IMG/VR virus record: IMGVR_UViG_3300021399_000107
Location: 93,173-157,172 of that record
DNA: 64,000 nucleotides
Origin: a virus
Lineage: Duplodnaviria > Heunggongvirae > Uroviricota > Caudoviricetes
Reading direction: 5' to 3' (one strand)
Made by a program: the position numbers and the translations under genes. The notes under the pieces are model-generated. The model saw nothing but the letters and a program-made list of their open reading frames with translations, did no database searches and had not been told where the DNA came from. Positions 8,280 through 57,659 of this stretch are shown here, piece after piece (positions within the stretch are counted from its first letter, which is position 1; each line of letters starts with the position of its first letter).

Positions 8280-8556
8280 TTACAATATCATAGGGCGGCA
8301 TATAATGCGCGCGCCTAGTTACTCCTGCCGGTAGTTCAAGAGAGAATGAAATATCGAATCCCTCTTCGCCGTACTGACGAATATCCTGATAGAACTTACA
8401 ATTATAATCCTCTCTTTCAGGGTTTAGCGCTCGATGAAAATGGTGACGTACAGATGCTTCCGGACGTTGTGATTTGTTGCAGAAATACCAACCAGTTGCG
8501 CGATTTTTAATTAGATAATAGGTCATAATACGAAGTTTCTTTTTGGGATGTGGCAT
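8269..8556 (-). CDS. hypothetical protein
   Basis: 95-aa ORF. Confidence 0.35.
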   Translation of the reverse strand: MPHPKKKLRIMTYYLIKNRATGWYFCNKSQRPEASVRHHFHRALNPEREDYNCKFYQDIRQYGEEGFDISFSLELPAGVTRRAHYMPPYDIVSDE

Positions 8557-8588
8557 CTTTCAATACCCTCCTTTTCTTTTCTAAAATT

Positions 8589-8617
8589 ATTATAGCATGA
8601 AACTAAATAAAAGTCAA
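8589..8617 (-). promoter_or_regulatory. consensus promoter TTGACT-17-TATAAT
   Basis: ATTATA-N17-AGTCAA on the plus strand. Confidence 0.55.
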
Positions 8618-8689
8618 ACTTTTTTCAACTAGCCGTAAAGTGTAATGTCAACGGACGTTAAATTAACTTGCGTGCTTTGAAAAAAATTT

Positions 8690-8745
8690 TTCGCGTAGCG
8701 AACGCTTTTTATTTTTTATATTATTTTATATATTTTATATTTCTG
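8690..8745. other. AT-rich tract (candidate DNA unwinding element)
   Basis: ttttatttttatattattttatatattttatattt lies adjacent to the iterons. Confidence 0.4.
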
Positions 8746-8866
8746 GTATCAAATTGACACCACCCTAAGGGTCAAAATGAACCCACCTAGTGGTGTCAAA
8801 ATGAACCCACTCGTGGTGTCAAATTGACACAACTCGTTAACAGGTTAGGCCAAATTGAACCCACTC
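8745..8866. repeat. iteron array (5 copies of TCAAA[A/T]TGA[A/C]CCAC core, 23-24 bp spacing)
   Basis: Repeat copies start near 8749, 8772, 8796, 8819 and 8850. The array overlaps the 3' end of the adjacent rep-like gene. Confidence 0.6.
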
Positions 8867-9238
8867 AGGATGAGCATAAAAATGGTAAAGTGGTAGGCGC
8901 ATACCTTGAGAGTCCTCGGCTATTTCTTCATTATAGACCAGATAATGCTTATCTATTAATCCTTTAATCGCGCGCTTATAGGACGATTCGCTGATACCAG
9001 TTTCATTCATTATATTTACACGACTGAGGCCGCCAATATAGTTATCTTGATTAGAAATAAGGTATAAATAAATCTTCAATTCGCTTTCGTTTAACATACG
9101 ACAAGCAAGTAGTAAGTCATCTTTGTAAACTTCTGAAACTCTTATAGCGGAATCAGGTCGCTTTTTATGTATCTGAAAAGCGCGTTGATTTTCAACGCAT
9201 TTAAAGGTTTTAGAAGTCAGTTTCACAATTATTGCCAT
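8837..9238 (-). CDS. replication initiator / replisome organizer N-terminal-domain-like protein
   Basis: 133 aa. LKIYLYLIS...NIMNETGISESSYKRAIKGLIDKHYL resembles the winged-helix N-domain of Firmicutes phage/plasmid Rep organizers. Iterons lie at its 3' end. Confidence 0.45.
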   Translation of the reverse strand: MAIIVKLTSKTFKCVENQRAFQIHKKRPDSAIRVSEVYKDDLLLACRMLNESELKIYLYLISNQDNYIGGLSRVNIMNETGISESSYKRAIKGLIDKHYLVYNEEIAEDSQGMRLPLYHFYAHPEWVQFGLTC

Positions 9239-9270
9239 ATTGTTACCTCGTTTATATGTTTATCTGCTTA

Positions 9271-9441
9271 CTAATTTTTAGTAATTAAAGGACGAAGCGC
9301 ACGTCGGAACGCCACACCATCTTCAAAATAGTAAACCATATAACGTGGATTTTTTCTATTTTTATCCATTTTAATCACCGGGAAGCCGAGCGCTTCTAGC
9401 TGATTCGCCACTCGCATGTTAAAAATAGCGTATAGAGCCAT
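9271..9441 (-). CDS. small hypothetical protein (56 aa, below ORF-track cutoff)
   Basis: Own translation MALYAIFNMRVANQLEALGFPVIKMDKNRKNPRYMVYYFEDGVAFRRALRPLITKN. GGAGGA ribosome-binding site with a TAATG stop/start overlap against the upstream gene. Confidence 0.35.
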   Translation of the reverse strand: MALYAIFNMRVANQLEALGFPVIKMDKNRKNPRYMVYYFEDGVAFRRALRPLITKN

Positions 9442-9665
9442 TAATTTTTCCTCCCATTGGTTTCATTATACAAAAGCTCCATTTTTTCCAATAAAGCTAT
9501 TGAAGGAGAACGTGTTTTAGTAAAAATTTTAGAGATATATGAACGGCTGCATCCCAGTTGTTCCGCTATGCGCTTATGTGTCCACTTTTGTTTTTGACAA
9601 TAAAGTTTAAAATTTTGTAAAAATATTTGTTTTTCTTGTTCAAATTGCGCTGAATTAAATTGCAC
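9441..9665 (-). CDS. XRE-family HTH transcriptional regulator
   Basis: The sequence RIAEQLGCSRSYISKIF is a helix-turn-helix. Confidence 0.55.
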   Translation of the reverse strand: MQFNSAQFEQEKQIFLQNFKLYCQKQKWTHKRIAEQLGCSRSYISKIFTKTRSPSIALLEKMELLYNETNGRKN

Positions 9666-25127: not shown

Positions 25128-25148
25128 AGATTCCTTACTAAATAAATG
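25128..25148. repeat. left copy of 21-bp perfect inverted repeat
   Basis: agattccttactaaataaatg is the reverse complement of 25687-25707. Confidence 0.7.
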
Positions 25149-25686
25149 TGCGCGACCTTCGTCGTACTTAATATATCCTCTAGTATTTTCAGCCAACGAG
25201 TAGTCTAGGGCTGTGCATGGGTAGCTATTCCATACATCCTAAACCAGCTTTCGCAAATCTCGTGCAAGATTGATGACTTGCAAGTTTCAGACAAATCATT
25301 CAGCAATAATAATAACAACTTATTAATTGTAAGAATCAAAGCTGCGTCTTTTGTCCTACTCCAACCGCGCACCTCACTTATATGCGATTTCTCGCTTTCA
25401 ACGACGCTAGCATCTTGTGGCTATTCCACTGTACCATTAGTTGCCACACCAATGTCTTTAGTGGATTCGGCAAGTCTCTTCAACTTGCTTTCAATTGTGA
25501 TGCCGTGAGGAACCGTGCTTTTACTTAGGGAATATACCAAGCGCCAACTCTTGACATTGGAAGTTTCTTCCTATCGCTAATACTTACGTATTTCGCGTCC
25601 GCGATTTAATAGTATCCCGTTAAATCGTATGGATGTCGTTCAAGCTGCCCAAGCAGAGTGATTAGCTCTTCTTCACTTGGCTCACC

Positions 25687-25707
25687 CATTTATTTAGTAA
25701 GGAATCT
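25687..25707. repeat. right copy of 21-bp perfect inverted repeat
   Basis: catttatttagtaaggaatct. The pair encloses a 538-bp ORF-free segment. Confidence 0.7.
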
Positions 25708-25911: not shown

Positions 25912-26062
25912 TGGTGCGCGCAGAGGAACTCGAATCCTCGACTCCATGATTAATGGTGGAGCGCCTAGGTACTACCCCTAGTTAAGATAAGCCTTGCTTC
26001 TTATCTGTGTTTTTTACACTAACGCCCCAAGTCATGTGCTCTTCCAACTGAGCTATGCGCGC
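25912..26062 (-). tRNA. tRNA-Pro(UGG)-like gene interrupted by ~75-nt insertion in anticodon loop (or disrupted pseudo-tRNA)
   Basis: On the minus strand: GCGCGCA-TA-GCTC-AGTTGGAA-GAGC-A-CATGA-CTTGGGG[75-nt insert]A-TCATG-GAGTC-GAGGA-TTCGAGT-TCCTC-TGCGCGC-A-CCA. All four arms are canonical. Only the anticodon loop is expanded. Confidence 0.4.
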
Positions 26063-43724: not shown

Positions 43725-44684
43725 TCAACCAATTTTTACATATTTATCTGAAACCCAACCAATTTGATTTCCGCAATATACGGCATACCATCCATTTTCC
43801 GATACTAGCGGCTCACCGATCTTATCTTGCACTACATTTAGTTCCGTATTGCGGCCAAAGGTAGTAATGATGCTATACTTCGTGGAGTCGCCTTGACGCG
43901 CATTGACGCTAGCCGTAGTCACATATTTTGTACCATTATCAATACTCACTTGCGGCTCCTCGGTTACATCAGGCGCACAGTCAGCCAATGCCGACATGAG
44001 CGCAGTATGGGTTTGCGCGCCATAAACGCCATCAGCCGTCAGGTTATGGGTCTTTTGAAATTTAAGAACAGCTGCTTCGGTTTTAGCGCCAAAATCGCCA
44101 TCTGCTTCCAAATCGCAATGTAGAATTTCATTTAAGTCTTTTTGTAGTTCGCGCACATCTTCACCTGTCATGCCCTTACGTAGAGTGCGGTTGCCCAATA
44201 CTGGCATTTCCGGTGTAACCTCTTGCGCGCCAGTCAGATATTTAATGCCAGGAATTTTATACCAATTCAGCCAATTCCTATTCTTTAGCTTCGTTAGAAC
44301 GCATCCATAATTGAAACCGCGTTCCTCTACAACTTCGCCATTACCAACATATACACCCACATGTCCATCATAACGAACGGCAATACCGGGAATATCGGGA
44401 ATGGTATCTATTGTTCCCCAATCCATGCCTTTAGACTTAGCGTATTCAAACATACCGTTTGCGCTACGATCTGGCATACCATTGGAAGCATAAGAATTTT
44501 TAAATAATGGGGTCGGAAGACCAATGGATTCGATTACGTTTTCACCACCGTTGGTCCAAAAATAGCCTTTCAGTAGCCCGACACAATCACTGCAAATTAA
44601 ATGCTTCTCAATCGCTTCCTTATACTTTGGCATACGAGTCTCGGCATAATGAGCGGGATATTGCTTTGATTTAGAATTTAGCAA
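43725..44684 (-). CDS. cell-wall hydrolase: NlpC/P60 endopeptidase + PG_binding_1 + SH3-like domain (tail lysin or endolysin)
   Basis: Catalytic Cys context CSDCVGLL and His GHVGVYVGNG. The repeat GMTGEDVRELQKDLN...DGDFGAKTEAAVLKFQ is a peptidoglycan-binding domain. C-terminal GWYAVYCGNQIGWV. Confidence 0.65.
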   Translation of the reverse strand: MLNSKSKQYPAHYAETRMPKYKEAIEKHLICSDCVGLLKGYFWTNGGENVIESIGLPTPLFKNSYASNGMPDRSANGMFEYAKSKGMDWGTIDTIPDIPGIAVRYDGHVGVYVGNGEVVEERGFNYGCVLTKLKNRNWLNWYKIPGIKYLTGAQEVTPEMPVLGNRTLRKGMTGEDVRELQKDLNEILHCDLEADGDFGAKTEAAVLKFQKTHNLTADGVYGAQTHTALMSALADCAPDVTEEPQVSIDNGTKYVTTASVNARQGDSTKYSIITTFGRNTELNVVQDKIGEPLVSENGWYAVYCGNQIGWVSDKYVKIG

Positions 44685-44714
44685 AGCATTAGTACAGGCA
44701 TATACACACGTGCC

Positions 44715-45560
44715 CTATTTTGTGATTAAAAAATCATTACCCATTAACATGTTCCATGACAAGTTTTTTAATTGTTCGTATGGTATTCGTACCAATGGAA
44801 TGTTATGTGCTAGAGCATATTCATTTTTAATACGGTCTTTTAATTGACGCTCCTGAAACTCTTCTTTAGTATTATAAAAATTACTTTTTGCACTATAATG
44901 TTGCCGGCCATCAAATTCGATAATTCGATAGGGTTTATCATTATTATCTAATAATACAAAATCATATCTAGCTGGAAAACCACTTGGTAATATTAAATCC
45001 TCAAAAAATGCTAAATCATATACATAATTGACATCATGCTCTTGTAAAATATGCTCAATGATTACTTCTCCTTTAGATTTCCGCGTACCTAAACATCCGC
45101 AAGACACAATTCTATTTTGTAAAATTTCACCAGAATTAGCTGTAAAAATTTTACCACAATGACATTTACAATCCCAATAAGCATTTTTTGACCGAATATG
45201 ATGGTTAATTTTATACTGTTGGTTTAATTGAAGAAATTCAATTCCATTAACAGTTTTCCCAGTTAGTTCTCTAAGATTAGAGCCTCCTATTTTTCTAGCA
45301 AATTCTTTTTGAAGACAACCACAACTTTTAACGGTGACTTTGTTTGCGTCATTTATTTTACTAGAACAAACTGCAATAATATTACCACATTCACATTGAC
45401 ATAACCAAAAAACTTGTTTACCATAATCATGATTTAGGATTTTTACTCGCCATAAAGCAGTTAAGCGACCGTTTTTTTGACCGGTATAATCTTTTGCTTT
45501 ACCTAAATCTATTTTCTGGTATTCTTTACCTTTACAGTCGATTCCATGTTCGGCAATCAT
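44715..45560 (-). CDS. second Zn-finger + Vsr/DUF559-like endonuclease (homing-endonuclease-like)
   Basis: WLCQCECGN...SCGCL and WDCKCHCGK...SCGCL modules, plus EFDGRQHY...HNIPLVRI. It is a paralog of 13370-14086. Confidence 0.5.
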   Translation of the reverse strand: MIAEHGIDCKGKEYQKIDLGKAKDYTGQKNGRLTALWRVKILNHDYGKQVFWLCQCECGNIIAVCSSKINDANKVTVKSCGCLQKEFARKIGGSNLRELTGKTVNGIEFLQLNQQYKINHHIRSKNAYWDCKCHCGKIFTANSGEILQNRIVSCGCLGTRKSKGEVIIEHILQEHDVNYVYDLAFFEDLILPSGFPARYDFVLLDNNDKPYRIIEFDGRQHYSAKSNFYNTKEEFQERQLKDRIKNEYALAHNIPLVRIPYEQLKNLSWNMLMGNDFLITK

Positions 45561-46050
45561 TTTTAATCCTCCTTTCTTTATGTTTCCATAAAGTATAGAT
45601 CATATCATCATCCTAATTTTAGGATGTACTCCACTTCGGTTTTACCCTACTTCCATTTTGGAATGATCGTTGAACTTTCTTCTATTTGAAGCTTAGCTGC
45701 TGATTATCCATTACGCAAAACTTAGGATTTAACCTTATTTCATTTATATTTTTCTTTCTACTTTCGTCGCTATCACAAATAGCTTTATTTCATGCTTTTG
45801 TTGTAGCAAATATAACTTTAGGATTTCCCAGCAATTCGGAGTAAATTTTTCACGCAAATTACTTTACGCGGGTACTAAACTTGTGTGTATAATACCAATA
45901 TGGCATCCCAACAAATTTTCGTAGAAACTCTACAAAATGTACATTACTAAATTTTTCCGCCATAAAAAAGTCCTCCTTGGGCTTGAATAGCCCGCTACCA
46001 GCAAAGTAGGCAATATCAGTAAAAAAAATTCTAGTATACGCTGTCTGGGT

Positions 46051-48630: not shown

Positions 48631-49272
48631 TTATTGCGGGCCAGGTGTAAAAGTATCGTCATTTTTCGATGCAAAGAATCGTTTACTTACTTTATCATAC
48701 ATACCCGCAACTCCATTATATAGACAAGGGATAAAATCTCGGACAAGCCGCGATCCTAACCAAAATTTTGCATAATATATGTTAAAAACACCATTACCGC
48801 CACCTAATGATGGAACTGAATTTGTGTAAGCGGCAAAGAGAGCCATTGTTTGTTCAGGATAGGCAATAAAACTGTTCCCAGAATAGTTCTGATTTGTGAT
48901 AATATCTGTGGTAAAATTTGTAACGGTAAAAATCCTATCTTTAAATGTTAGAAGCATTTCACCAGTTTTACCATTTACAAGTTTTGAGTCTCCTCTCCCA
49001 TTACCATAATCTAAACGAAGTTTATCTTGATCTGCTAAAAAATTAATATTATTATATGGAGCGGCACCTACATTCTTTCTTGCCCCATACACAAACACTT
49101 CTTTTTTTGTGTTATAACAACGTATTTCAAATTCTAACTCAGCTGTTAACGCGATTCCCATATCAATGTAAGGATGCGTTCCACTAATTGTACCGATGTA
49201 TTGTAATGGAATATAGGAAATAGAGGGCGTGGAGTCTAGTAAGATACGCCTGCGTAGTTCTAGCGCGCCCAT
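48631..49272 (-). CDS. hypothetical structural protein
   Basis: 213-aa ORF. Confidence 0.4.
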   Translation of the reverse strand: MGALELRRRILLDSTPSISYIPLQYIGTISGTHPYIDMGIALTAELEFEIRCYNTKKEVFVYGARKNVGAAPYNNINFLADQDKLRLDYGNGRGDSKLVNGKTGEMLLTFKDRIFTVTNFTTDIITNQNYSGNSFIAYPEQTMALFAAYTNSVPSLGGGNGVFNIYYAKFWLGSRLVRDFIPCLYNGVAGMYDKVSKRFFASKNDDTFTPGPQ

Positions 49273-50369
49273 ATGCCAACAACTCCTCGCCCATTTAACA
49301 CATTAATTTCATATATCATGTTTGCTTGTATATTTGATGGATCAAATGTGTTGGGCCATAGGATACTTGTAGAGGTGAAGACAGGAATAGTATCACCGGT
49401 AGAAAAAACGACAGAAAAGATTCCAGTAGCAGGAGGAGTGATAGAAATGGAATATATTTCACCGCACAAATAGCTGGTGTTATTTTCTGCTACAATAACG
49501 GGGTCTGTACCAGAAACTTCAATTACAGCCGGGCGCGCAAGTGTATCAACATAGGTCTTAATACCACCGCTAGTGACTGGATTGGTGCTATTTTGAGTAG
49601 GAGTTGTATCAAATGTTAGAATATCCTGCTTCCCACTTATATCCTGATGTTGGGTAAGATAACCAGCATCATTGTCCAACTCAGACACTTTTGTTGGCAC
49701 CGTAGCAGTAGGCAATACAAGATTTAGAACCGGATCTTCTGCTGTTCCAGTAATTGTAGCTGCCGCTTGCGGCCCTTCTTCAACTGTGCCAATGTGCAAT
49801 TGCGAAACACTACCGCTTGCCTTCACACTTGTATTAACATATTGTGATGTTTCTGCATCCCAAGCATACCAATAACCGTCATCACCAATAGTAGGATAAT
49901 GGTCAACATTTGATTGTGTTTGCTGTATGGCTTGATCTAGAGCTATAAGAGCGTTAGAAATAATATCTAAATCTTGCGGCGAAATTTTAGCGCTTGCGCC
50001 ATCAGGCGAAACTAAATAGTTATCAGCCGTTTCTCGAATTTCGCAAATCGGGAGAGCAAAACCCGCATAATAGGAATCCACTTCATCCCCATTAACAAGT
50101 TCATCTTCAACAAATTCTGGATTTGTATAATATTTAATATCCCAAAAGTATTTACCTGGCTTTAAATTAACGGTATCATTGTGAGAGAAGGCGATACTAA
50201 GTGTATCGCCTTCGCTTGGAACAATTTTTTGAAATAACTTTGTGCGCGTTAAGTTATCAAAAATTGTAAAAACGGCAATGTTACCGGTGACATTATTTAA
50301 AGCTGGTAAAGAAAAAGAGCCAGTGTCTCCACGCGGTATAATTAATCGCCGTCCAATCATTCTAATCAT
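49260..50369 (-). CDS. hypothetical structural protein (baseplate/fibre-associated)
   Basis: 369-aa ORF. Confidence 0.4.
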   Translation of the reverse strand: MIRMIGRRLIIPRGDTGSFSLPALNNVTGNIAVFTIFDNLTRTKLFQKIVPSEGDTLSIAFSHNDTVNLKPGKYFWDIKYYTNPEFVEDELVNGDEVDSYYAGFALPICEIRETADNYLVSPDGASAKISPQDLDIISNALIALDQAIQQTQSNVDHYPTIGDDGYWYAWDAETSQYVNTSVKASGSVSQLHIGTVEEGPQAAATITGTAEDPVLNLVLPTATVPTKVSELDNDAGYLTQHQDISGKQDILTFDTTPTQNSTNPVTSGGIKTYVDTLARPAVIEVSGTDPVIVAENNTSYLCGEIYSISITPPATGIFSVVFSTGDTIPVFTSTSILWPNTFDPSNIQANMIYEINVLNGRGVVGIWAR

Positions 50370-51148
50370 TAGTCATTATACCGCCTATCATAACGTGGCA
50401 TACGTCTATATGAGTACCACTCATCGTCATCATGCTCAGGCATATCATAATTTGTATAATTGCCTTCGCCCCTGCGGCGATACTGATAATTTTCCATATT
50501 TAGACGACGAATTTTTTCTGCGTATTTTTCCTTTAGTGGCTCTTGTTGGGATAGGATATAATTCATGTCATAACCGTCGCTCTCAAGAGAAATAAGTTTC
50601 TCTTCGGCGTGTTGGAGTTCTTTATCTACGTGGTCAATTAGGTAATCCATCTTGCGGGCAGCTTCGCGCTCATTCAGTTGATTGAGCTTGTCGGTCATAT
50701 TGATCAGAAATTGCTTAGTTTCTTTCTCATAGTCAATCCACTTCTTGAAACCATCTTTTACACCATTACGTTTAGTGCTGCCGTCAACATCATAGCGTGT
50801 ATATTTATACCAATTTTGAGGAATGACGTTATTAGCATAATTGGTTGAACCCATAGAATTACCATTGTTGTTATTATTATTTCCCATATTACCTAAATTA
50901 TACATATAGGTGGGCTGCACAAGCTGGTTATATTCTTTCATATACATATCTTTTGCTTTACGATAGGTTAGAAGCTCGCAAAGCATCTGATATTCATGAC
51001 ATTTCTGATAACCGGGTAGATTGAGAAAAGAATAGTAATCGGCTAGTTGCTCGTGCATTTCAACGCCCTGCTTCATTCGATTTAGTAATTCAGAATAAAG
51101 TTGCTGGGCTTCTTGATTTTGAGACATCATATTACCCCTCCTTAGCAA
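50369..51148 (-). CDS. Asn/Tyr-rich hypothetical protein
   Basis: 259 aa with NMGNNNNNNGNSMG. Confidence 0.4.
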   Translation of the reverse strand: MLRRGNMMSQNQEAQQLYSELLNRMKQGVEMHEQLADYYSFLNLPGYQKCHEYQMLCELLTYRKAKDMYMKEYNQLVQPTYMYNLGNMGNNNNNNGNSMGSTNYANNVIPQNWYKYTRYDVDGSTKRNGVKDGFKKWIDYEKETKQFLINMTDKLNQLNEREAARKMDYLIDHVDKELQHAEEKLISLESDGYDMNYILSQQEPLKEKYAEKIRRLNMENYQYRRRGEGNYTNYDMPEHDDDEWYSYRRMPRYDRRYND

Positions 51149-51555
51149 AGCTGCGTAACAATTACATTATAGTGCGCGTCAGCCGACGCAACATCGCTAG
51201 GATTGATTATTTGAACTGCGGTTGGCGCAGAAGTACAGTTACAAGGACAATTGGTTTGCGCGACAGTCACAAGGCAACAGGTTGAGGCACTAGCAAGGTC
51301 TCCAACAGCAACAGTAGCCATGTTGATTGCGTCAAGCCTTGGCGCGCCATTAACGGCAACTTGCACGCCAAAGTCGCCAGCGGCTTCAACACTTCCATAA
51401 GCATCGACCTTAATGAGGTATACACCACGTTTTTCAAGGAGGATAGTAGCAGGCGCGCTGTGTGATGCAGAGTTGCCTTTTGCATAAGTAACATTATTTA
51501 GTGGGACGGCTGCGCCAGCAGCAACAGTCAGCCCATCGCTATATAGTTGAAGCAT
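51142..51555 (-). CDS. hypothetical structural protein
   Basis: 137-aa ORF. Confidence 0.4.
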   Translation of the reverse strand: MLQLYSDGLTVAAGAAVPLNNVTYAKGNSASHSAPATILLEKRGVYLIKVDAYGSVEAAGDFGVQVAVNGAPRLDAINMATVAVGDLASASTCCLVTVAQTNCPCNCTSAPTAVQIINPSDVASADAHYNVIVTQLC

Positions 51556-51580
51556 TTTAAATTACCTCCATATGTATACA

Positions 51581-51613
51581 AAAAATAGGGCGCACATAAG
51601 TGCGCCCTATTTT
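51581..51613 (-). terminator. rho-independent terminator
   Basis: Hairpin AATAGGGCGCAC-N4-GTGCGCCCTATT followed by TTTTGTAT on the minus strand. Confidence 0.55.
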
Positions 51614-51647
51614 AAACTAGACACACTAAATGTGTTCGATGTTTAAA

Positions 51648-51947
51648 TTACATATTCACTCCATTGCAGCAAGTGTTGCCGCAAGTGTTGCCGCCGCAGA
51701 AGGGATTGGTTCCAGCATTATAGGTCCAACCATTGGGATAACGCATTACACCTTGTAACTGATTAGCTAGCTGTAGCTGACCAACCTGGTCACGAAGGTC
51801 TTGAATGGTGTTGCCGGTCATCATATCAATGATACGCTGGGTCTGTGCAGTAGTATTGGCATTAATAGAAGAAGTGTTCATCGCGTTCTCATAGCGCGCC
51901 TGTGCAATTTGAGCAGCTAGGTTGTTACCAACCTCATTGATGAGCAT
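51648..51947 (-). CDS. probable 3' exon of intron-interrupted structural gene (99-aa ORF)
   Basis: Gln/Asn/Ala-rich composition like the upstream 142-aa ORF. Its ribosome-binding site is poor. It lies immediately 3' of the intron's P9 hairpin. Confidence 0.4.
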   Translation of the reverse strand: MLINEVGNNLAAQIAQARYENAMNTSSINANTTAQTQRIIDMMTGNTIQDLRDQVGQLQLANQLQGVMRYPNGWTYNAGTNPFCGGNTCGNTCCNGVNM

Positions 51948-51949
51948 CC

Positions 51950-52965
51950 TCGTATCACAACCATGGTGTTATCATAAAAGCTCTTTATCTTTTATTTCTT
52001 ATGGTTTCCCATAAGTTCGGACTATATCTTCACCCATAAGTGGGGTCGGGCACTCGTGGAGAGATTATTGGTAAATCTTCCTCACTCTCTAAGTCTCTGA
52101 GCCTTCCAAGATACCAGATTGATTATTCTCTTGGCTTGGCTGCTGGTTGGCATATTTACAAATATGGTTTTTATATTTAATTTGCCCATTATTATCTTTT
52201 AATTTTTTGGAAAAGCTAACATAGGAAAAATTATAATATTTTGCTGCGGCTTTAATGCTCGGAAATAAAATATCATCTACATATATTGATAAACTTTTTG
52301 ATGTATTTGGATTAATAAATACAGGAAAATTTTTATTTAATTCATCTTCATATCTACAAATATTTCCATAAGCATCATATCCTTTTTTACACCAACGAAT
52401 TACCGTATCTTCACAAACATGCAGTTGCCGTGCTGCTTCTAAAACTCCAATATAGCGCTGTCCGTTTATTACAACAGGACGACGCTTTTGTCCATTTACT
52501 TTTTCTGCAATTTCTGGATCTTGCATTGGATTATTTTTAGACATTCGTTCTCGTTGTTGTGATCGTTTCATTGGATTGTATTCTGATTGATATGCACGCA
52601 TAGCATCTGTCCAAACAAAGTGACAACCACCTTTTCCACCATTATCTAAACTGGCTTTTGCTTGTCCTATTTTATGATAGTATTTAATTAATGCCGCTTC
52701 TTTAGCGAAAGCGTCTTGCTCTTTGTCAAAATATTCAATAATTTCTACTTCACAATTATAGTTATTGTAGTATTTTTTAAAAATTTCATTACGACCAGCA
52801 ATTTGATGGCATCTATTCCCTGTTCCTTTTCCAATATAAAATACTTCATTTATATCTATAGCTATCCATCTATACACATAAAAAATTTTTTCTTCCATTG
52901 TAATTCTCCATATTTTATAATTTGGCTGTTCCAGCAATTCACCCGATTGCCATAGCAACTTACGC
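51950..52965 (-). mobile_element. group I intron (approximate bounds) carrying GIY-YIG homing endonuclease ORF
   Basis: On the minus strand: an R-like element GGCTCAGAGACTTAGA at 52091-52106 and an exact S element AAGATATAGTCC at about 52038-52049. These are followed by a P9-like hairpin TTATGG-GAAA-CCATAA. A P-like element GAATTGCTGGAA lies 5' of the ORF. The HEG stop codon sits inside R. Confidence 0.6.
52089..52898 (-). CDS. GIY-YIG homing endonuclease (intron-encoded)
   Basis: Start at MEEKIFYVYRW, which has a TGGAGA ribosome-binding site. GIY-YIG block YVYRW...FYIGKGTGNR and conserved SLDNGGKG. The C-terminal region is a DNA-binding repeat. Confidence 0.7.
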   Translation of the reverse strand: MEEKIFYVYRWIAIDINEVFYIGKGTGNRCHQIAGRNEIFKKYYNNYNCEVEIIEYFDKEQDAFAKEAALIKYYHKIGQAKASLDNGGKGGCHFVWTDAMRAYQSEYNPMKRSQQRERMSKNNPMQDPEIAEKVNGQKRRPVVINGQRYIGVLEAARQLHVCEDTVIRWCKKGYDAYGNICRYEDELNKNFPVFINPNTSKSLSIYVDDILFPSIKAAAKYYNFSYVSFSKKLKDNNGQIKYKNHICKYANQQPSQENNQSGILEGSET

Positions 52966-53388
52966 TGCTAAAGTGTCATTGTAGATATAACACTGATTCT
53001 GATTTGCAAGTAGCGTCATCTGATTGGTACGAACATCATTAATCTGAGAGCCGATAACCGCTTGAATATCCTTCATCACATTAATGTTATCGTACTTAGC
53101 CTGAGAAGTAGCCGCAACAGCCTGCGCAGTACCATTTGTAATGGCGGTCATGATATCACGATTCTGATCTTGTAGATCAGAGAAGTTCATGCCAGCCTGT
53201 ACAAAATCCTGCGTTGCGTATTGAGGACGATAGCCGCCGCCACCGCCAAAATTGCCAAAGCCGCCGCCAAAGAGTGCGAGGATAGCAAATAGCCAAATCA
53301 TACCGCCCCAGCCGCTACCACCAAAACTGTCATTATTGTTTCCACTGAGTAGAGCGACATCAGCAGCAGAAAGTCCATTTTCGCTCAT
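52960..53388 (-). CDS. probable 5' exon region of interrupted gene (142-aa ORF; Gly-rich membrane/structural protein)
   Basis: GGGFGNFGGGGG and a hydrophobic segment. The C-terminal residues may be read-through into the intron. Confidence 0.4.
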   Translation of the reverse strand: MSENGLSAADVALLSGNNNDSFGGSGWGGMIWLFAILALFGGGFGNFGGGGGYRPQYATQDFVQAGMNFSDLQDQNRDIMTAITNGTAQAVAATSQAKYDNINVMKDIQAVIGSQINDVRTNQMTLLANQNQCYIYNDTLAA

Positions 53389-53418
53389 AATTATTCCTCC
53401 TTAGAAAAGAAAAATTAT

Positions 53419-53455
53419 ATATATAAAAAACGTTCGTGTTTAAAACACGAACGTT
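53419..53455 (-). terminator. rho-independent terminator
   Basis: Hairpin AACGTTCGTGTTT-AAA-ACACGAACGTT followed by TTTTTTATATAT on the minus strand. Confidence 0.55.
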
Positions 53456-53781
53456 CATTGCAGAGCACGCAACACATCTTCGGGATTTACGCCCGCTTGT
53501 TGCGCTAAATAATAGAACAATTGTTGCATATTAATGCCATTAGAAGAAGCCATTTTAATTAGATTCGCTAGTGTCGGATTCTGATTTATCGCTTCTGTAA
53601 TAACTTGTTGCGGATTAGCACTCATTTTTACCGCACTCATCAGATTCCTAATTTGTTGAATCTGTGGATTCATCTGCGGCTGTTGCTGCGTTCCTTTGCT
53701 TCTTATTTGATTTTGAAACTCCAGAATTGGATTGCTTGGCATATAATTCCTCCAAGTGGCGTAGTCGACTATCAAGATCAT
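53455..53781 (-). CDS. Gln/Asn-rich hypothetical protein
   Basis: 108-aa ORF. Confidence 0.35.
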   Translation of the reverse strand: MILIVDYATWRNYMPSNPILEFQNQIRSKGTQQQPQMNPQIQQIRNLMSAVKMSANPQQVITEAINQNPTLANLIKMASSNGINMQQLFYYLAQQAGVNPEDVLRALQ

Positions 53782-54055
53782 TTAGATCAATAGGCGGCTG
53801 AGTTTGGTGCGGCTTCACGTCAAATGGCGCAACCGTTAGATAACCGGCTCCATCTGTTTGCGCAAGCCAGACAATAGCGCCCGATTCATCTAGCAGTAAG
53901 ATACTGCTATTCGCATCCATTTGAATACTGCGCGCGCCTGCTTCACCTTTAACCTTAATGATTTCATAGTGCGGCAAAATTTGATATGGTGAGCGCATAG
54001 ACATGCGTCCCATATTCATATTCATATTATTATTAATTCTATTTCCTAAGTCCAT
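53648..54055 (-). CDS. hypothetical protein (overlaps downstream ORF in another frame; one of the two may be mis-started)
   Basis: 135-aa ORF. Confidence 0.3.
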   Translation of the reverse strand: MDLGNRINNNMNMNMGRMSMRSPYQILPHYEIIKVKGEAGARSIQMDANSSILLLDESGAIVWLAQTDGAGYLTVAPFDVKPHQTQPPIDLNDLDSRLRHLEELYAKQSNSGVSKSNKKQRNAATAADESTDSTN

Positions 54056-54057
54056 AT

Positions 54058-54273
54058 TTATGCCTCATTCTTATATTTGCGACCACAATATGGACACCAC
54101 ACGCATGGCCGCATGTTGTTCGCATTATCTAGAAAAAAGAGCGGGATTTCGCGCTTCTTTTTCTGATTGTAACAGAAGCCGCATCCGATTGTTTGTGGCT
54201 CTTTCCATGAAGCATCTTTAGTAGCTTCTTCGTAGTTTTCGTATTCTTCGTATTCGTACCTAAATCGTGCCAT
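54058..54273 (-). CDS. zinc-ribbon protein
   Basis: CGFCYN...CVWCPYCG. Confidence 0.4.
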   Translation of the reverse strand: MARFRYEYEEYENYEEATKDASWKEPQTIGCGFCYNQKKKREIPLFFLDNANNMRPCVWCPYCGRKYKNEA

Positions 54274-54282
54274 AATGCTCCT

Positions 54283-54927
54283 TTATGTACCTGCGTAGTC
54301 AATAATGACTATTTTATTATTTATATAGCCGACATTCCCAAAGTGAATGTCGTCAATTTTATTTGTAGCAAGAAAATTAGATAAGCGTTCATATGCTTCA
54401 CGTCCATAATCTTCATAAAAATTATTGGCTATATCAACATAAGTGTTTAGACAAGAAGGAACGGAACGTAAATAAGAACGTCTACCTGAACGTATGTAGT
54501 GATGATGTATAGAGGAAGTACGCGCACGCGGATACGCATACAAAGGAAGCCGTATATTCTTTGCTGTATATGTTCCTAGTTGATATGGTTGCGCGAAAAA
54601 TTGTGAACAAGAAGCCTTTTCAGCCAATTTATAATTTTCGCACTCATGAAGACAATGAAAAACACTAGGCTGTAAATCAAATTTTACAACATATTCGCAC
54701 GTATCATCAATTAGACAACCTCGAAACGCGCCGCAGGCGATGTGAAGGTGAGGATTAAACAAGTCCTCACCTTCATCTTCTTCTTCAAAACTAAGTTCAT
54801 AAGGTGAAGAAAAATACTTATTCCAAAAAGATGAATTATGAATAAGCGTAGTGAGTGCGCTAGAATAGCGGTCGTAAACTTCGTTGAAATTCATCTTTAC
54901 ACTTCCTTTCATGTTTCTATTATACAC
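54283..54927 (-). CDS. hypothetical protein
   Basis: 214-aa ORF. Confidence 0.4.
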   Translation of the reverse strand: MYNRNMKGSVKMNFNEVYDRYSSALTTLIHNSSFWNKYFSSPYELSFEEEDEGEDLFNPHLHIACGAFRGCLIDDTCEYVVKFDLQPSVFHCLHECENYKLAEKASCSQFFAQPYQLGTYTAKNIRLPLYAYPRARTSSIHHHYIRSGRRSYLRSVPSCLNTYVDIANNFYEDYGREAYERLSNFLATNKIDDIHFGNVGYINNKIVIIDYAGT

Positions 54928-54947
54928 GAAAGTGCGTAAAAAGTCAA
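54919..54947 (-). promoter_or_regulatory. consensus promoter TTGACT-17-TATAAT
   Basis: ATTATA-N17-AGTCAA on the plus strand. Confidence 0.55.
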
Positions 54948-55013
54948 GTATTAAAATTACTGTTCTGTAAGATAGGTAGAAAAAATTGGTTGAAAAATGT
55001 ATATTATGCGCGC

Positions 55014-57659
55014 TTACCTTTCAACCCAACCACGATTCAAATATTGCCATCCTTTTGTATGTCCTGTTGTGTCTACCATTTGCGCGCCAAATGGAACATT
55101 AGTATCGGTAGGATATTCGGTTCCATAGGCTACACCAGAATTAAGGTATGGTGATTGTAGTGTCCATGCGCCTTCGTTGAAGCCACCTAGACGAATAGAG
55201 ATATGACTAAAAGATGGGGCATTGGTATCGGCTAATTCAAGTGGAAACTCATTAAAAGGATAGAGACAGGGATAGAACTTGATTACCATTGTGTGGTAAG
55301 TTTCGTTTCCATTCTCATCCGGTAAGTCAGGAAAGCGTTTTATCATTAGTGCGTTATGTCCCATTGGTTTTCCATAATAGTTACCTACTGTCAAAGTGCC
55401 TTCATCATTAGTGATGGGCGCGCCAATGGTACGATCATAGCCATACAAATCTTCGCGCCTAATAGTAGGTGCATCGCATAAGTAAACGATTGCGCCATCA
55501 TCTGGCCTCGTTGCACGATAGAATTTTGCTGAGCCACTATCCAATTCTCGTACTCCTTGAGAATTGTAAAGAAGACAATTCCACATGATACCCTCAACAT
55601 CGGCGTCAATTTCGACAACATAAGATGTGTTTAAGGTAAGGGTAAGAGTAGCGAAACAATACTGGTCTTGAAAAAGATCGGCTGGCATCATGCGCAGATG
55701 GGTTAGATCATCTTGATACACTCTTGGATTATAATGCTGTTTTTTGGGATTCAAAATTTCTACTCGCGGGTGGCCGCCAGTAGCTACCAAGTTGGTTGGT
55801 AATGTGAATTTCTCTTGCGGCGTAATTAGATTAAAAATTGGAACAAACTTCCAATACTTTTTGTTTCTAAATGCGCGCACATTTGATTTCTTATCTATGG
55901 TATCCCATTTCTTTGTTACCATCAGCATAGAGTCATAGGTCTCGTCGTGCGTGCGCTCGACAATATTACTTGCGGAATCGTAGTAGGCGGTTGGAATCCA
56001 ATAGCCATAGGGAAGTCCAGAATACTCAAAAGCGGATTGAGTATTAAGAATTTCGCCGCCATCCTTGTAAATAATAGCATCAAGAACGTAGTAGTATTCA
56101 ACATCATTTTCTGTGCTATATATATAACCATAAGTAATAAGTTTTTGAATCCAATCGGGCAATATGTAAGCCTTATGAGTGCCTTCTTTCCAAGTGTTAT
56201 TATTTATATCTGTTGGATCGCTGCCAGGATCACAAGTATACACACCATTTGGCACTTGCTGTACCAAACCTTCGTTATCATCGGGGTCCTCGGCTTGCAC
56301 TTTTGCCGCAATAGAATAAAAAGGATACTCGGTATTTGTTTCATTATTAGGTAAACGTTGCCTGTTCATAAGATAAGTAGTGTCACTGTCACTTGTTGGA
56401 TTAATGAAGCTAACTGTTGGCGCGCTTGTGCCTGACTTATTAATTACATATTTCCTATACTTAATTTGATCTATTAGTTCAAAATAAATGGTATCGTAAA
56501 GGAAATAATTGGGATTCAAATTTTCACCACGACAAATAAACATATTATTGCGACCATTATTAATATTAAGTGATGAAGTACTTGATTCCAATGAAACATT
56601 ATAGAAATAATTGTTATTGCTCTTGTAGTCTTTTATTTTAGACCCATACAAGAAAATATGCGACACTTGCATATCATAAAATTTGTTATCATTGGTATAA
56701 CCATAGGTGCCACCATTTATTTTTACAGAATCATAGAAAGTATGAGTTACGTCAGGCCATAGTTCTTCATCTGCTCCATTTAAAGAATGATATTTCAAAT
56801 CTTCGGGTTGTGCTTGATAATTTTCAATAGCCATTAGCTTTAATGTATTTACATAATGACCATGAATTGTATTATAAGTACATGAGCAGTCGCGCAAAAC
56901 GCTACGATCATCGCCAATAAAGTTGAGAGTGTCGATGCGGTCGAAGGTAATATCACAATGACCCATGTTAATAAAGGAAATAAATGTAGCGCGATAGATG
57001 AAAATATTGAGATATAGATATTGGCGCGCTGGGCGATCACCAATAACAACAGGAACGGCGTTTGTGTCGTCTTCAGGATCGAGTTTAGTTGTCTTTGCTC
57101 GCCATGCGCTTGAGGTCGCGTCATCTAAATCGTATTTAAACACAAGCCCAAGATTTTCAAACGTACTATTTAAATTTATACTTTTAGGAAAATTTTCAGC
57201 AGGCGTTGGAACTAATAGATCACCAACATAAGTTGATGTTAAATTTGTAGAACGTAGTGTAATTAAATATGGTGCATTTGTGCCGCTATATGTAAAAACA
57301 TCACTATTACTTGTCCAGTTTAATTTATGCTGACAACAATAGCGAAAACTATTTTGTACAATAGATTCAAATTTTTGCGCGCCTGCGTCTTCTGTAAGAA
57401 CAGAAGGCAGTCCACCAAAGGATTCAATACTTATGTCGGTAGATGGAACAATTTCTACGGAATATGAACCTACGTTAGATTGCCCATTAGCACTAAAGTA
57501 ATTTATGGGTAGCTCTTCTTGCGGCTCCTCGATAATACGATAACGAGCTTGCCCGCCATCATTAACCTCCCTAAATCCTAGGGTTGAAAAAATGGTTCCA
57601 ATCGGTAGCGTTGGTTCGTTTACAATACCCAGTAGTGTATCAAAAAGTTGTTCTTGCAT
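55014..57659 (-). CDS. large structural protein (tail spike/baseplate-like, 882 aa)
   Basis: Start at MQEQLFDTLL with an AGGTGAGAAT ribosome-binding site. Tyr/Asn/Thr-rich, beta-rich composition. Confidence 0.45.
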   Translation of the reverse strand: MQEQLFDTLLGIVNEPTLPIGTIFSTLGFREVNDGGQARYRIIEEPQEELPINYFSANGQSNVGSYSVEIVPSTDISIESFGGLPSVLTEDAGAQKFESIVQNSFRYCCQHKLNWTSNSDVFTYSGTNAPYLITLRSTNLTSTYVGDLLVPTPAENFPKSINLNSTFENLGLVFKYDLDDATSSAWRAKTTKLDPEDDTNAVPVVIGDRPARQYLYLNIFIYRATFISFINMGHCDITFDRIDTLNFIGDDRSVLRDCSCTYNTIHGHYVNTLKLMAIENYQAQPEDLKYHSLNGADEELWPDVTHTFYDSVKINGGTYGYTNDNKFYDMQVSHIFLYGSKIKDYKSNNNYFYNVSLESSTSSLNINNGRNNMFICRGENLNPNYFLYDTIYFELIDQIKYRKYVINKSGTSAPTVSFINPTSDSDTTYLMNRQRLPNNETNTEYPFYSIAAKVQAEDPDDNEGLVQQVPNGVYTCDPGSDPTDINNNTWKEGTHKAYILPDWIQKLITYGYIYSTENDVEYYYVLDAIIYKDGGEILNTQSAFEYSGLPYGYWIPTAYYDSASNIVERTHDETYDSMLMVTKKWDTIDKKSNVRAFRNKKYWKFVPIFNLITPQEKFTLPTNLVATGGHPRVEILNPKKQHYNPRVYQDDLTHLRMMPADLFQDQYCFATLTLTLNTSYVVEIDADVEGIMWNCLLYNSQGVRELDSGSAKFYRATRPDDGAIVYLCDAPTIRREDLYGYDRTIGAPITNDEGTLTVGNYYGKPMGHNALMIKRFPDLPDENGNETYHTMVIKFYPCLYPFNEFPLELADTNAPSFSHISIRLGGFNEGAWTLQSPYLNSGVAYGTEYPTDTNVPFGAQMVDTTGHTKGWQYLNRGWVER

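Follow-up and report, generated by a model that had tools for sequence, protein, structure and literature searches.

Do the three minus-strand open reading frames (ORFs) between positions 51,648 and 53,388 of a stretch of gut-phage DNA represent three neighbouring genes, or one gene interrupted by a self-splicing intron? The source is IMG/VR record IMGVR_UViG_3300021399_000107 (Caudoviricetes), of which we analyzed a stretch of 64,000 nucleotides (nt; record positions 93,173 to 157,172), referred to below as the window. The ORF listing places a 269-amino-acid (aa) endonuclease ORF between ORFs of 142 and 99 aa (Table 1), as the first-pass annotation of this DNA had noted when it proposed a group I intron with a GIY-YIG homing endonuclease gene (HEG) splitting a late structural gene. 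The core of that proposal holds, in that a group I intron carrying such an endonuclease gene splits one gene. With a probability that we put at about 0.93, the segment 52988..51962 (minus strand) is a mobile group I intron, probably of the IA type found in phages, lying within a gene for a 237-aa protein.

The two small ORFs are halves of one gene, because their best homologues are single continuous proteins. A trial fusion of both ORFs matched two GenBank gut-phage contigs with an uninterrupted gene (in MT837517 a single alignment piece of the fusion query covers both exons), and both contigs carry an E-C-C-C motif where the window ORFs break. One U|...G| splice alone restores this invariant Cys-Cys-Cys (CCC) motif in frame, in the window and likewise in seven other loci, and alignment of the flanking ORFs to the intron-less homologues set the exon boundary at 52989/51961 via the same motif. 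The spliced product of 237 aa, reading ...LLANQNQCCCDTRMLINEV... (NQNQCCCDTR at the junction), has 4,603 homologous clusters. Of these 4,603, the best 120 are uninterrupted, 68-85% identical and 222-243 aa long (two are shorter, at 200 and 202 aa), so the two ORFs are not independent genes. CCC (C133-C135) is invariant in the aligned homologues, and several uninterrupted ones, including P0002 and P0004, have the identical junction peptide. The spliced messenger RNA would be expected, from the intron anatomy, to join ...AAUCAGUGUU|GUUGUGAUACG..., that is, CAG UGU U|GU UGU GAU.

Searches with the Rfam group I model (RF00028) found the intron core. On positions 51500-53500 the model matched 51998-52247 with 46.3 bits (E 4e-10; E 1.3e-08 on the whole window); its P6, R, P3′, P8, S and P9 elements fit well, and its 5′ half was forced into the 269-aa ORF. 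The actual 5′ half of the core is found ahead of that ORF, where it could be read once the boundaries were fixed. A homologous intron in locus L242 (10857-11190), likewise inserted at CCC in this gene, has no ORF and scores 87.2 bits (E 1e-22) against a curated gathering threshold of 50 bits. In this allele P5a closes as a plain hairpin where relatives hold the endonuclease gene, and the ORF is therefore directly seen as an insertion in the P5a loop. The minus-strand motifs on which the first-pass annotation had relied (a P-like element, R with the HEG stop codon inside it, S, and a GAAA-capped P9 hairpin) all lie where it had placed them. Single short motifs of this kind are within chance: 1.5 matches to the S motif with at most one mismatch are expected in shuffles of the window, and the P element has two matches in the window against 0.33 expected, the second of which lies in the window's other intron. 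The combination of motifs is far beyond chance, as the RF00028 E-values show.

Relatives were gathered through exact look-ups of endonuclease homologues and a scan of IMG/VR for the core DNA pattern, and are numbered as loci (L). We aligned eight distinct introns at the CCC site with the ORF interior removed, drew the structure by hand and counted pairs on the alignment. The 77 proposed pairs fall into 13 helices; 95.7% of the alignment cells form standard pairs and 34 pairs change on both sides, nearly all pairs of P2, P6a, P7.1 and P9.1 being compensatory. The ORF-deleted intron, folded to minimum energy without constraints, again shows P1, P2, P3, P4, P5/P5a, P6, P7.1, P8, P9 and P9.1. All helices from P1 to P10 could be placed, with covariation supporting P1 to P9.1, the fold agreeing for every nested helix, and co-variation read by hand supporting P10 (Table 1).

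The helices at the splice sites are tied to the exons they serve. In P1, U52989 stands opposite G, and the helix is fully paired in all eight homologous introns; columns 9/62 pair as C-G in five and as U-A in three, tracking a synonymous TGT/TGC change in exon 1 that goes with A or G in the guide. P10 co-varies as well, ACAGU occurring with GCUGU (L011) and GCAGU with GCUGC (L013 and L118); these pairs were read by hand, and two groups of sequences are offset in register by one additional base that lies between the guide strands of P10 and P1. The terminal G of the intron is present in all eight aligned loci. P7 and P3 make the core pseudoknot. P7 is paired in 100% of cells, its outer pair being A-U in seven sequences and G-C in the window, and P4 is paired in all sequences, except for the outermost pair in one. 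P5/P5a is a long-range helix whose strands flank the endonuclease ORF on either side. An extra helix between the P7 5′ and P3 3′ strands is typical of subgroup IA; at this IA-type P7.1/P7.2 position the intron has one hairpin, P7.1, with an inner stem of two base pairs, and no separate P7.2 was identified. The exon 1 frame runs into the intron and ends at the UAA (52962-52964) of the GUAA loop in L2, as it does in seven relatives, and this frame survives insertions in L1, of +3 nt in L013 and of +39 nt in L118.

Table 1 Coordinates of the split gene, its intron and other features of the window
Feature	Position	Strand	Remarks
Exon 1	52989..53388	minus	ATG at 53388 to U 52989 (...CAG UGU U); residues 1-133 and first base of Cys134
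142-aa ORF	52960-53388	minus	ORF listing
Group I intron, 1,027 nt	51962..52988	minus	starts AUAUCUAC..., ends ...ACACCAUG; last base is omega-G at 51962
P1	52972..52994	minus	exon AGUGUU (52989-52994) with guide GACACU (52972-52977); U.G at 5′ splice site
P10 guide strand ACAAU	52978..52982	minus	in L1 loop; pairs first five exon 2 bases GUUGU (51957-51961)
P2 hairpin UAGCAGC-GUAA-GUUGCUA	52953..52970	minus	GNRA loop; 6/7 pairs change on both sides, 98% of cells paired
P3 5′ strand UCGGGUG	52940..52946	minus	pairs UGCCCGA; J3/4 (AAU) next; 3 pairs change on both sides, 94.6% of cells paired
P-like element GAATTGCTGGAA	52929-52940	minus	spans last base of P3 5′, J3/4 (AAU) and P4 5′ strand
P4 5′ strand UUGCUGG (classical P element)	52931..52937	minus	pairs CCAGCAG (52140-52146)
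P5/P5a 5′ strand (GC ... UUAUAAAAUAUGG)	52908..52926	minus	3 pairs change on both sides; fold recovers helix
Homing endonuclease gene, 269 aa (from ATG), 810 nt	52089..52898	minus	ORF listing, between 142-aa and 99-aa ORFs; in P5a terminal loop; N-terminal GIY-YIG, I-TevI-like DNA-binding region
P5a/P5 3′ strand (CCAUAUUUGUAA ... GC)	52150..52167	minus	inside 3′ end of endonuclease coding sequence
P4 3′ strand CCAGCAG (Q element)	52140..52146	minus	within last 60 nt of endonuclease coding sequence
P6 and P6a (CC...GG; CCAAGA/UCUUGG)	52102..52139	minus	6/6 P6a pairs change on both sides; 100% of cells paired
R element GGCTCAGAGACTTAGA	52088-52103	minus	contains endonuclease stop TAG (52089-52091)
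P7 5′ strand G(A)GACU(U)A, part of R	52090..52097	minus	overlaps endonuclease stop UAG (52089-52091)
P7.1 hairpin (GAGAG ... CUCUC)	52059..52089	minus	between P7 5′ and P3 3′; 4/5 pairs change on both sides; fold recovers
P3 3′ strand UGCCCGA	52046..52052	minus	
P8 hairpin CCCA-CUUA-UGGG	52033..52044	minus	closing pair U-A in 5 sequences, C-G in 3
S element AAGATATAGTCC	52019-52030	minus	
P7 3′ strand UAGUCC, part of S	52019..52024	minus	
P9 hairpin CUUAUGG-GAAA-CCAUAAG	51998..52015	minus	100% paired, 2 pairs change on both sides
P9.1 hairpin AUAAAAG-AUAAAGAG-CUUUUAU	51974..51995	minus	100% paired, 5/7 pairs change on both sides
Exon 2	51648..51961	minus	GU UGU GAU ACG AGG AUG...; stop codon 51648-51650
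99-aa ORF	51648-51947	minus	ORF listing
ORF downstream of the split gene	51142-51555	minus	
Endolysin gene	43725-45963	minus	exon 1 45892-45963, exon 2 43725-44714; junction GMPYWY|GTCVY
Second group I intron	44715-45891	minus	RF00028, 55 bits
Endonuclease ORF of second intron, 281 aa	44715-45560	minus	downstream of P9
tRNA-Lys(UUU)-like gene	25915-26062	minus	~76-nt structured insert inside anticodon (CATGACTT[insert]TTAATCATGG)
ROOL RNA, full-length	25134-25704	minus	RF03087, 303.6 bits

The protein encoded within the intron is assigned to the GIY-YIG endonucleases, an assignment that holds by motif and fold. It matches PHROG 314, ‘homing endonuclease’ (E 5e-14), and has 243 homologous clusters. 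In an alignment of 31 homologues, Y7, Y9, Y21, G23, K24, G25, R29 and E67 are invariant, with the spacing FYVY(7-9)...FYIGKG(20-25)...R29...E67, so that the GIY and YIG motifs, separated by 10-11 residues, are followed by the catalytic Arg and Glu. The protein has the GIY-YIG alpha/beta fold and a separate C-terminal DNA-binding module (NUMOD or helix-turn-helix). In Pfam the window protein gives weak matches only (NUMOD1, HTH_17 and LEM-3_GIY-YIG, the last at 0.032); among the 31 relatives scanned individually, NUMOD1 was matched in 17, HTH_17 in 11, I-TevI_DNA-bd in 8 and PF01541 in 7 (best E 2.6e-4).

Gene and ribozyme overlap in sequence. The leader of the endonuclease ORF inside the intron is 30 nt long, and its Shine-Dalgarno sequence GGAG (52906-52909) has its first two G in the tip of P5a; at the other end, the last ~80 nt of the ORF pass through P5a′, P5′, P4′ and P6 into the P7 5′ strand. 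Four relatives (L013, L127, L118 and L044) carry a TTGACx-17-TATAAT-like promoter box ahead of the ORF in the L5 loop, a box that the window copy does not have. Two other endonuclease ORFs hold in-frame stop codons, TAG in L009 (1501-2268) where relatives have a Gln codon, and TGA in L127 (~8530-9530) where relatives have Trp, which suggests stop-codon reassignment in these two phages.

Intron-plus, intron-minus and ORF-less alleles of the gene coexist. The intron is present on at least 11 distinct contigs and one ORF-less allele was found (L242); intron-less alleles comprise L001, L002 and L003-L005 in addition to the best 120 homologues. Look-ups of endonuclease homologues with identities of 83%, 62%, 54% and 49% led in each case to a position between exon-1-like and exon-2-like ORFs of the host gene, and wherever the context of an endonuclease homologue was inspected (at identities as low as 38%), the homologue sat at the CCC site of the host-gene family. 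A search of viral contigs with the single endonuclease protein returned one distant relative only, at 26% identity. The window exons are 82% and 87% identical to those of the intron-less L003, and exon 1 is just 69% identical to that of the intron-bearing L007. Intron presence is thus discordant with the host-gene tree and exon identities are mosaic, a distribution consistent with homing. HEG clusters amount to ~5% of host-protein clusters (243 vs 4,603), although the two counts can be compared only roughly. The core strings AAGATATAGTCYRAACTTAT and GAATTGCTGGAA...CAGCARCC...AAGATATAGTC each occur on at least 119 IMG/VR viral contigs (loci L014-L254); this type of intron core is very widespread in uncultivated phages and the core consensus is generic. 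In two more distant host genes (L045 and L099) the intron apparently lies 3 nt downstream within the TGY-TGY-TGY repeat (TGC TGC T|GT GAA), with guides altered to match (GGCAGC and GUUUCA), in what seems to be a one-codon shift of the insertion site.

From this anatomy we infer a conventional life cycle. The transcribed RNA would fold into the P1-P10 ribozyme, an external guanosine would attack after U52989 in the U.G pair of P1, and the freed exon 1 would then attack after the terminal G at 51962, with exon 2 aligned by P10. By analogy with I-TevI-type enzymes, the endonuclease would cleave the gene near the CCC codons wherever a co-infecting relative has it without the intron, and recombinational repair of the cut allele would copy the intron in. 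Translation of the endonuclease and folding of the ribozyme are probably mutually exclusive on one RNA molecule, because P5a partly buries the ribosome-binding site and the final part of the ORF crosses P5′, P4′ and P6 into P7.

Several points weigh against a functional mobile intron in this window, and some of them would fit a decaying relic that splices poorly or needs a protein helper, leaving the host gene inactive or yielding only the 142-aa N-terminal fragment. Under its default gathering cutoff the Rfam scan missed the intron in the window, because 46.3 bits is short of the required 50 and the model had to place its 5′ half in the coding sequence of the endonuclease; partial or sub-threshold RF00028 matches have been met in the same way where a long ORF-bearing loop splits the core (PMC11878797), and the score of the ORF-less L242 intron removes this doubt. 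The structure was drawn by hand from the same eight sequences and is therefore favoured in the control in which partners were slid by 1-3 columns (33-43% pairing). Since these sequences are related, the count of shuffles reaching the observed values (0 of 500; covariation score 0.38 vs 0.18 in shuffles) is not a probability. The window endonuclease lies below every Pfam GIY-YIG threshold, with no PF01541 match at E <= 0.1. A 1-nt insertion in the P7 5′ strand, which adds a bulged U, is present in the window copy and in none of the seven relatives; the window copy is also the only one to have lost the upstream stop codon in L6 (present in L007 and L009; loss shared by 0/7 relatives), so that its ORF is nine codons longer and ends within P7. 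Either change, the P7 bulge or the ORF extension, could weaken catalysis. Yet all helices still pair in the window, except for P5 columns shifted by the alignment, and the U.G pair, terminal G and P10 are intact. Both exons are open, with a product 85% identical to intact homologues that keeps all invariant residues, and the endonuclease ORF is likewise intact with all its own. The identical endonuclease sequence is found on three contigs from independent sources, so this intron variant circulates. We regard a relic as very unlikely.

A free-standing endonuclease gene between two separate small genes, in effect a gene fission without RNA splicing, would agree with the three separate ORFs given by gene callers, and free-standing GIY-YIG genes are common in phages. 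This account is almost certainly wrong: a complete group I core backed by covariation surrounds the ORF, the two small ORFs form a single protein in the best homologues, the stop codon of the exon 1 ORF lies inside the P2 loop, and L242 has an ORF-less intron at this site. Moreover, what the listing takes as the ATG of the 99-aa ORF is a conserved Met codon within exon 2, and the sole purine-rich stretch there (GAGG) directly abuts this AUG. Given the group I core and the splice junction, an intein and a group II intron were rejected along with gene fission. It is also conceivable, though unlikely, that the intron acts as a translation-gated switch that governs when, or how much of, an essential late protein is made, since ribosomes on the ORF would have to unfold the ribozyme, including the guanosine-binding helix P7, or that the copy with the bulged P7 needs its own endonuclease as a splicing helper. 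To our knowledge, such a helper role has not been described for GIY-YIG enzymes.

The endonuclease family seems to be directed at a single short stretch, the codons of the invariant Cys-Cys-Cys, and this choice of target would mark CCC as functionally critical in the host protein. Profile searches of the host protein against Pfam, NCBIfam and the PDB gave no family match, and its sole PHROG match is PHROG 16490, a family without assigned function. An AlphaFold2 model of the 85%-identical homologue P0002, of low confidence (mean predicted local distance difference test score, pLDDT, of 50), has a short hydrophobic helix, then one helix over residues 69-201 and a Cys-rich tail. The neighbourhood contains large proteins with weak tail-like matches, plus an endolysin. 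From this gene context, placement of the host gene in the late region is plausible, as the first-pass annotation had it; its further description as structural was not borne out, the host protein having no informative family match. A megablast of positions 49000-56000 against GenBank phages returned no match. In every locus examined (the window and L001-L013) an ORF of 132-138 aa follows the split gene, and the two look like a conserved pair. The downstream ORF has weak BclA_C matches in the window (2e-7 in Pfam) and in two relatives, and in NCBIfam it matches a Gly-Xaa-Xaa repeat C-terminal domain.

The window holds a second group I intron at 6 kilobases (kb) from the first, which splits the endolysin gene; it scores above the RF00028 threshold yet was missed by the default filters. 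Its U|...G| splice listing was ambiguous until an intron-less endolysin of a Christensenellales phage, which reads FLGMPYWYGTCVYKCT, fixed and confirmed the junction. This intron carries a different endonuclease ORF, matching the PHROG annotation ‘HNH endonuclease’ (6e-28), whose stop codon UAG provides the terminal G. Elsewhere in the window, a ROOL RNA lies ~210 nt downstream of an interrupted gene resembling a lysine transfer RNA (tRNA). The fold z-score there is -5.1, and L134 has an uninterrupted counterpart. ARAGORN made no call for this gene and the insert matches no Rfam family; at 76 nt it is too short for a third group I intron, a candidate that we rejected.

For annotation, the consequence is direct: gene callers split the host gene into two ‘hypothetical proteins’ and an unnamed ORF, and treat the endolysin gene likewise, so that pangenomes of this gut-phage group will mis-cluster both genes. 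The intron-less, intron-plus and ORF-less alleles, together with the co-evolution of guide and exon, offer a natural series from uncultivated phages in which to study a homing element through its life cycle. The known workings of group I introns and GIY-YIG enzymes are unchanged by these findings.

Among known systems, the td intron of phage T4 with I-TevI (a group IA2 intron with a GIY-YIG homing endonuclease) is the same kind of element, although similarity between I-TevI and the window endonuclease is too low for HMMER detection. The T4 td intron reportedly has its ORF in P6a, whereas here the ORF lies in the P5a loop and its 3′ end overlaps the core as far as P7; the host gene, unlike td, does not belong to nucleotide metabolism and has no assigned function. 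The introns of Herelleviridae (PMC11878797) are again of this kind, and the group IA introns of Bacillus nrdE/nrdF (PMC2248736) and those of Bastillevirinae (PMC11878797) combine the same classes of intron and endonuclease in different targets and hosts. For most of the Bacillus and Bastillevirinae introns splicing was shown experimentally (PMC11878797, PMC2248736), whereas here it is predicted from sequence. Most split phage genes serve DNA or nucleotide metabolism (PMC11878797), which makes a late-region target less usual. The earlier remark that introns in phage structural genes are uncommon is accordingly fair (PMC11878797), although they are not unprecedented: orf142 of phage Twort, a tail tube gene, is split by introns (PMC11878797), which are self-splicing group I introns in a late or virion gene. 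Our locus differs from Twort in having one intron in the gene, in an unrelated host protein and in its lineage. The novelty lies in the host gene, which codes for a widespread phage protein without assigned function and is interrupted at an invariant CCC; in the phages concerned, an uncultivated group from the human gut that has contigs of 95-187 kb and an endolysin closest to that of a Christensenellales phage; and in the position of the ORF, which sits in P5a and overlaps the core deeply. The kind of selfish element is well known, and this locus adds to it a real and well-supported mobile group I intron.

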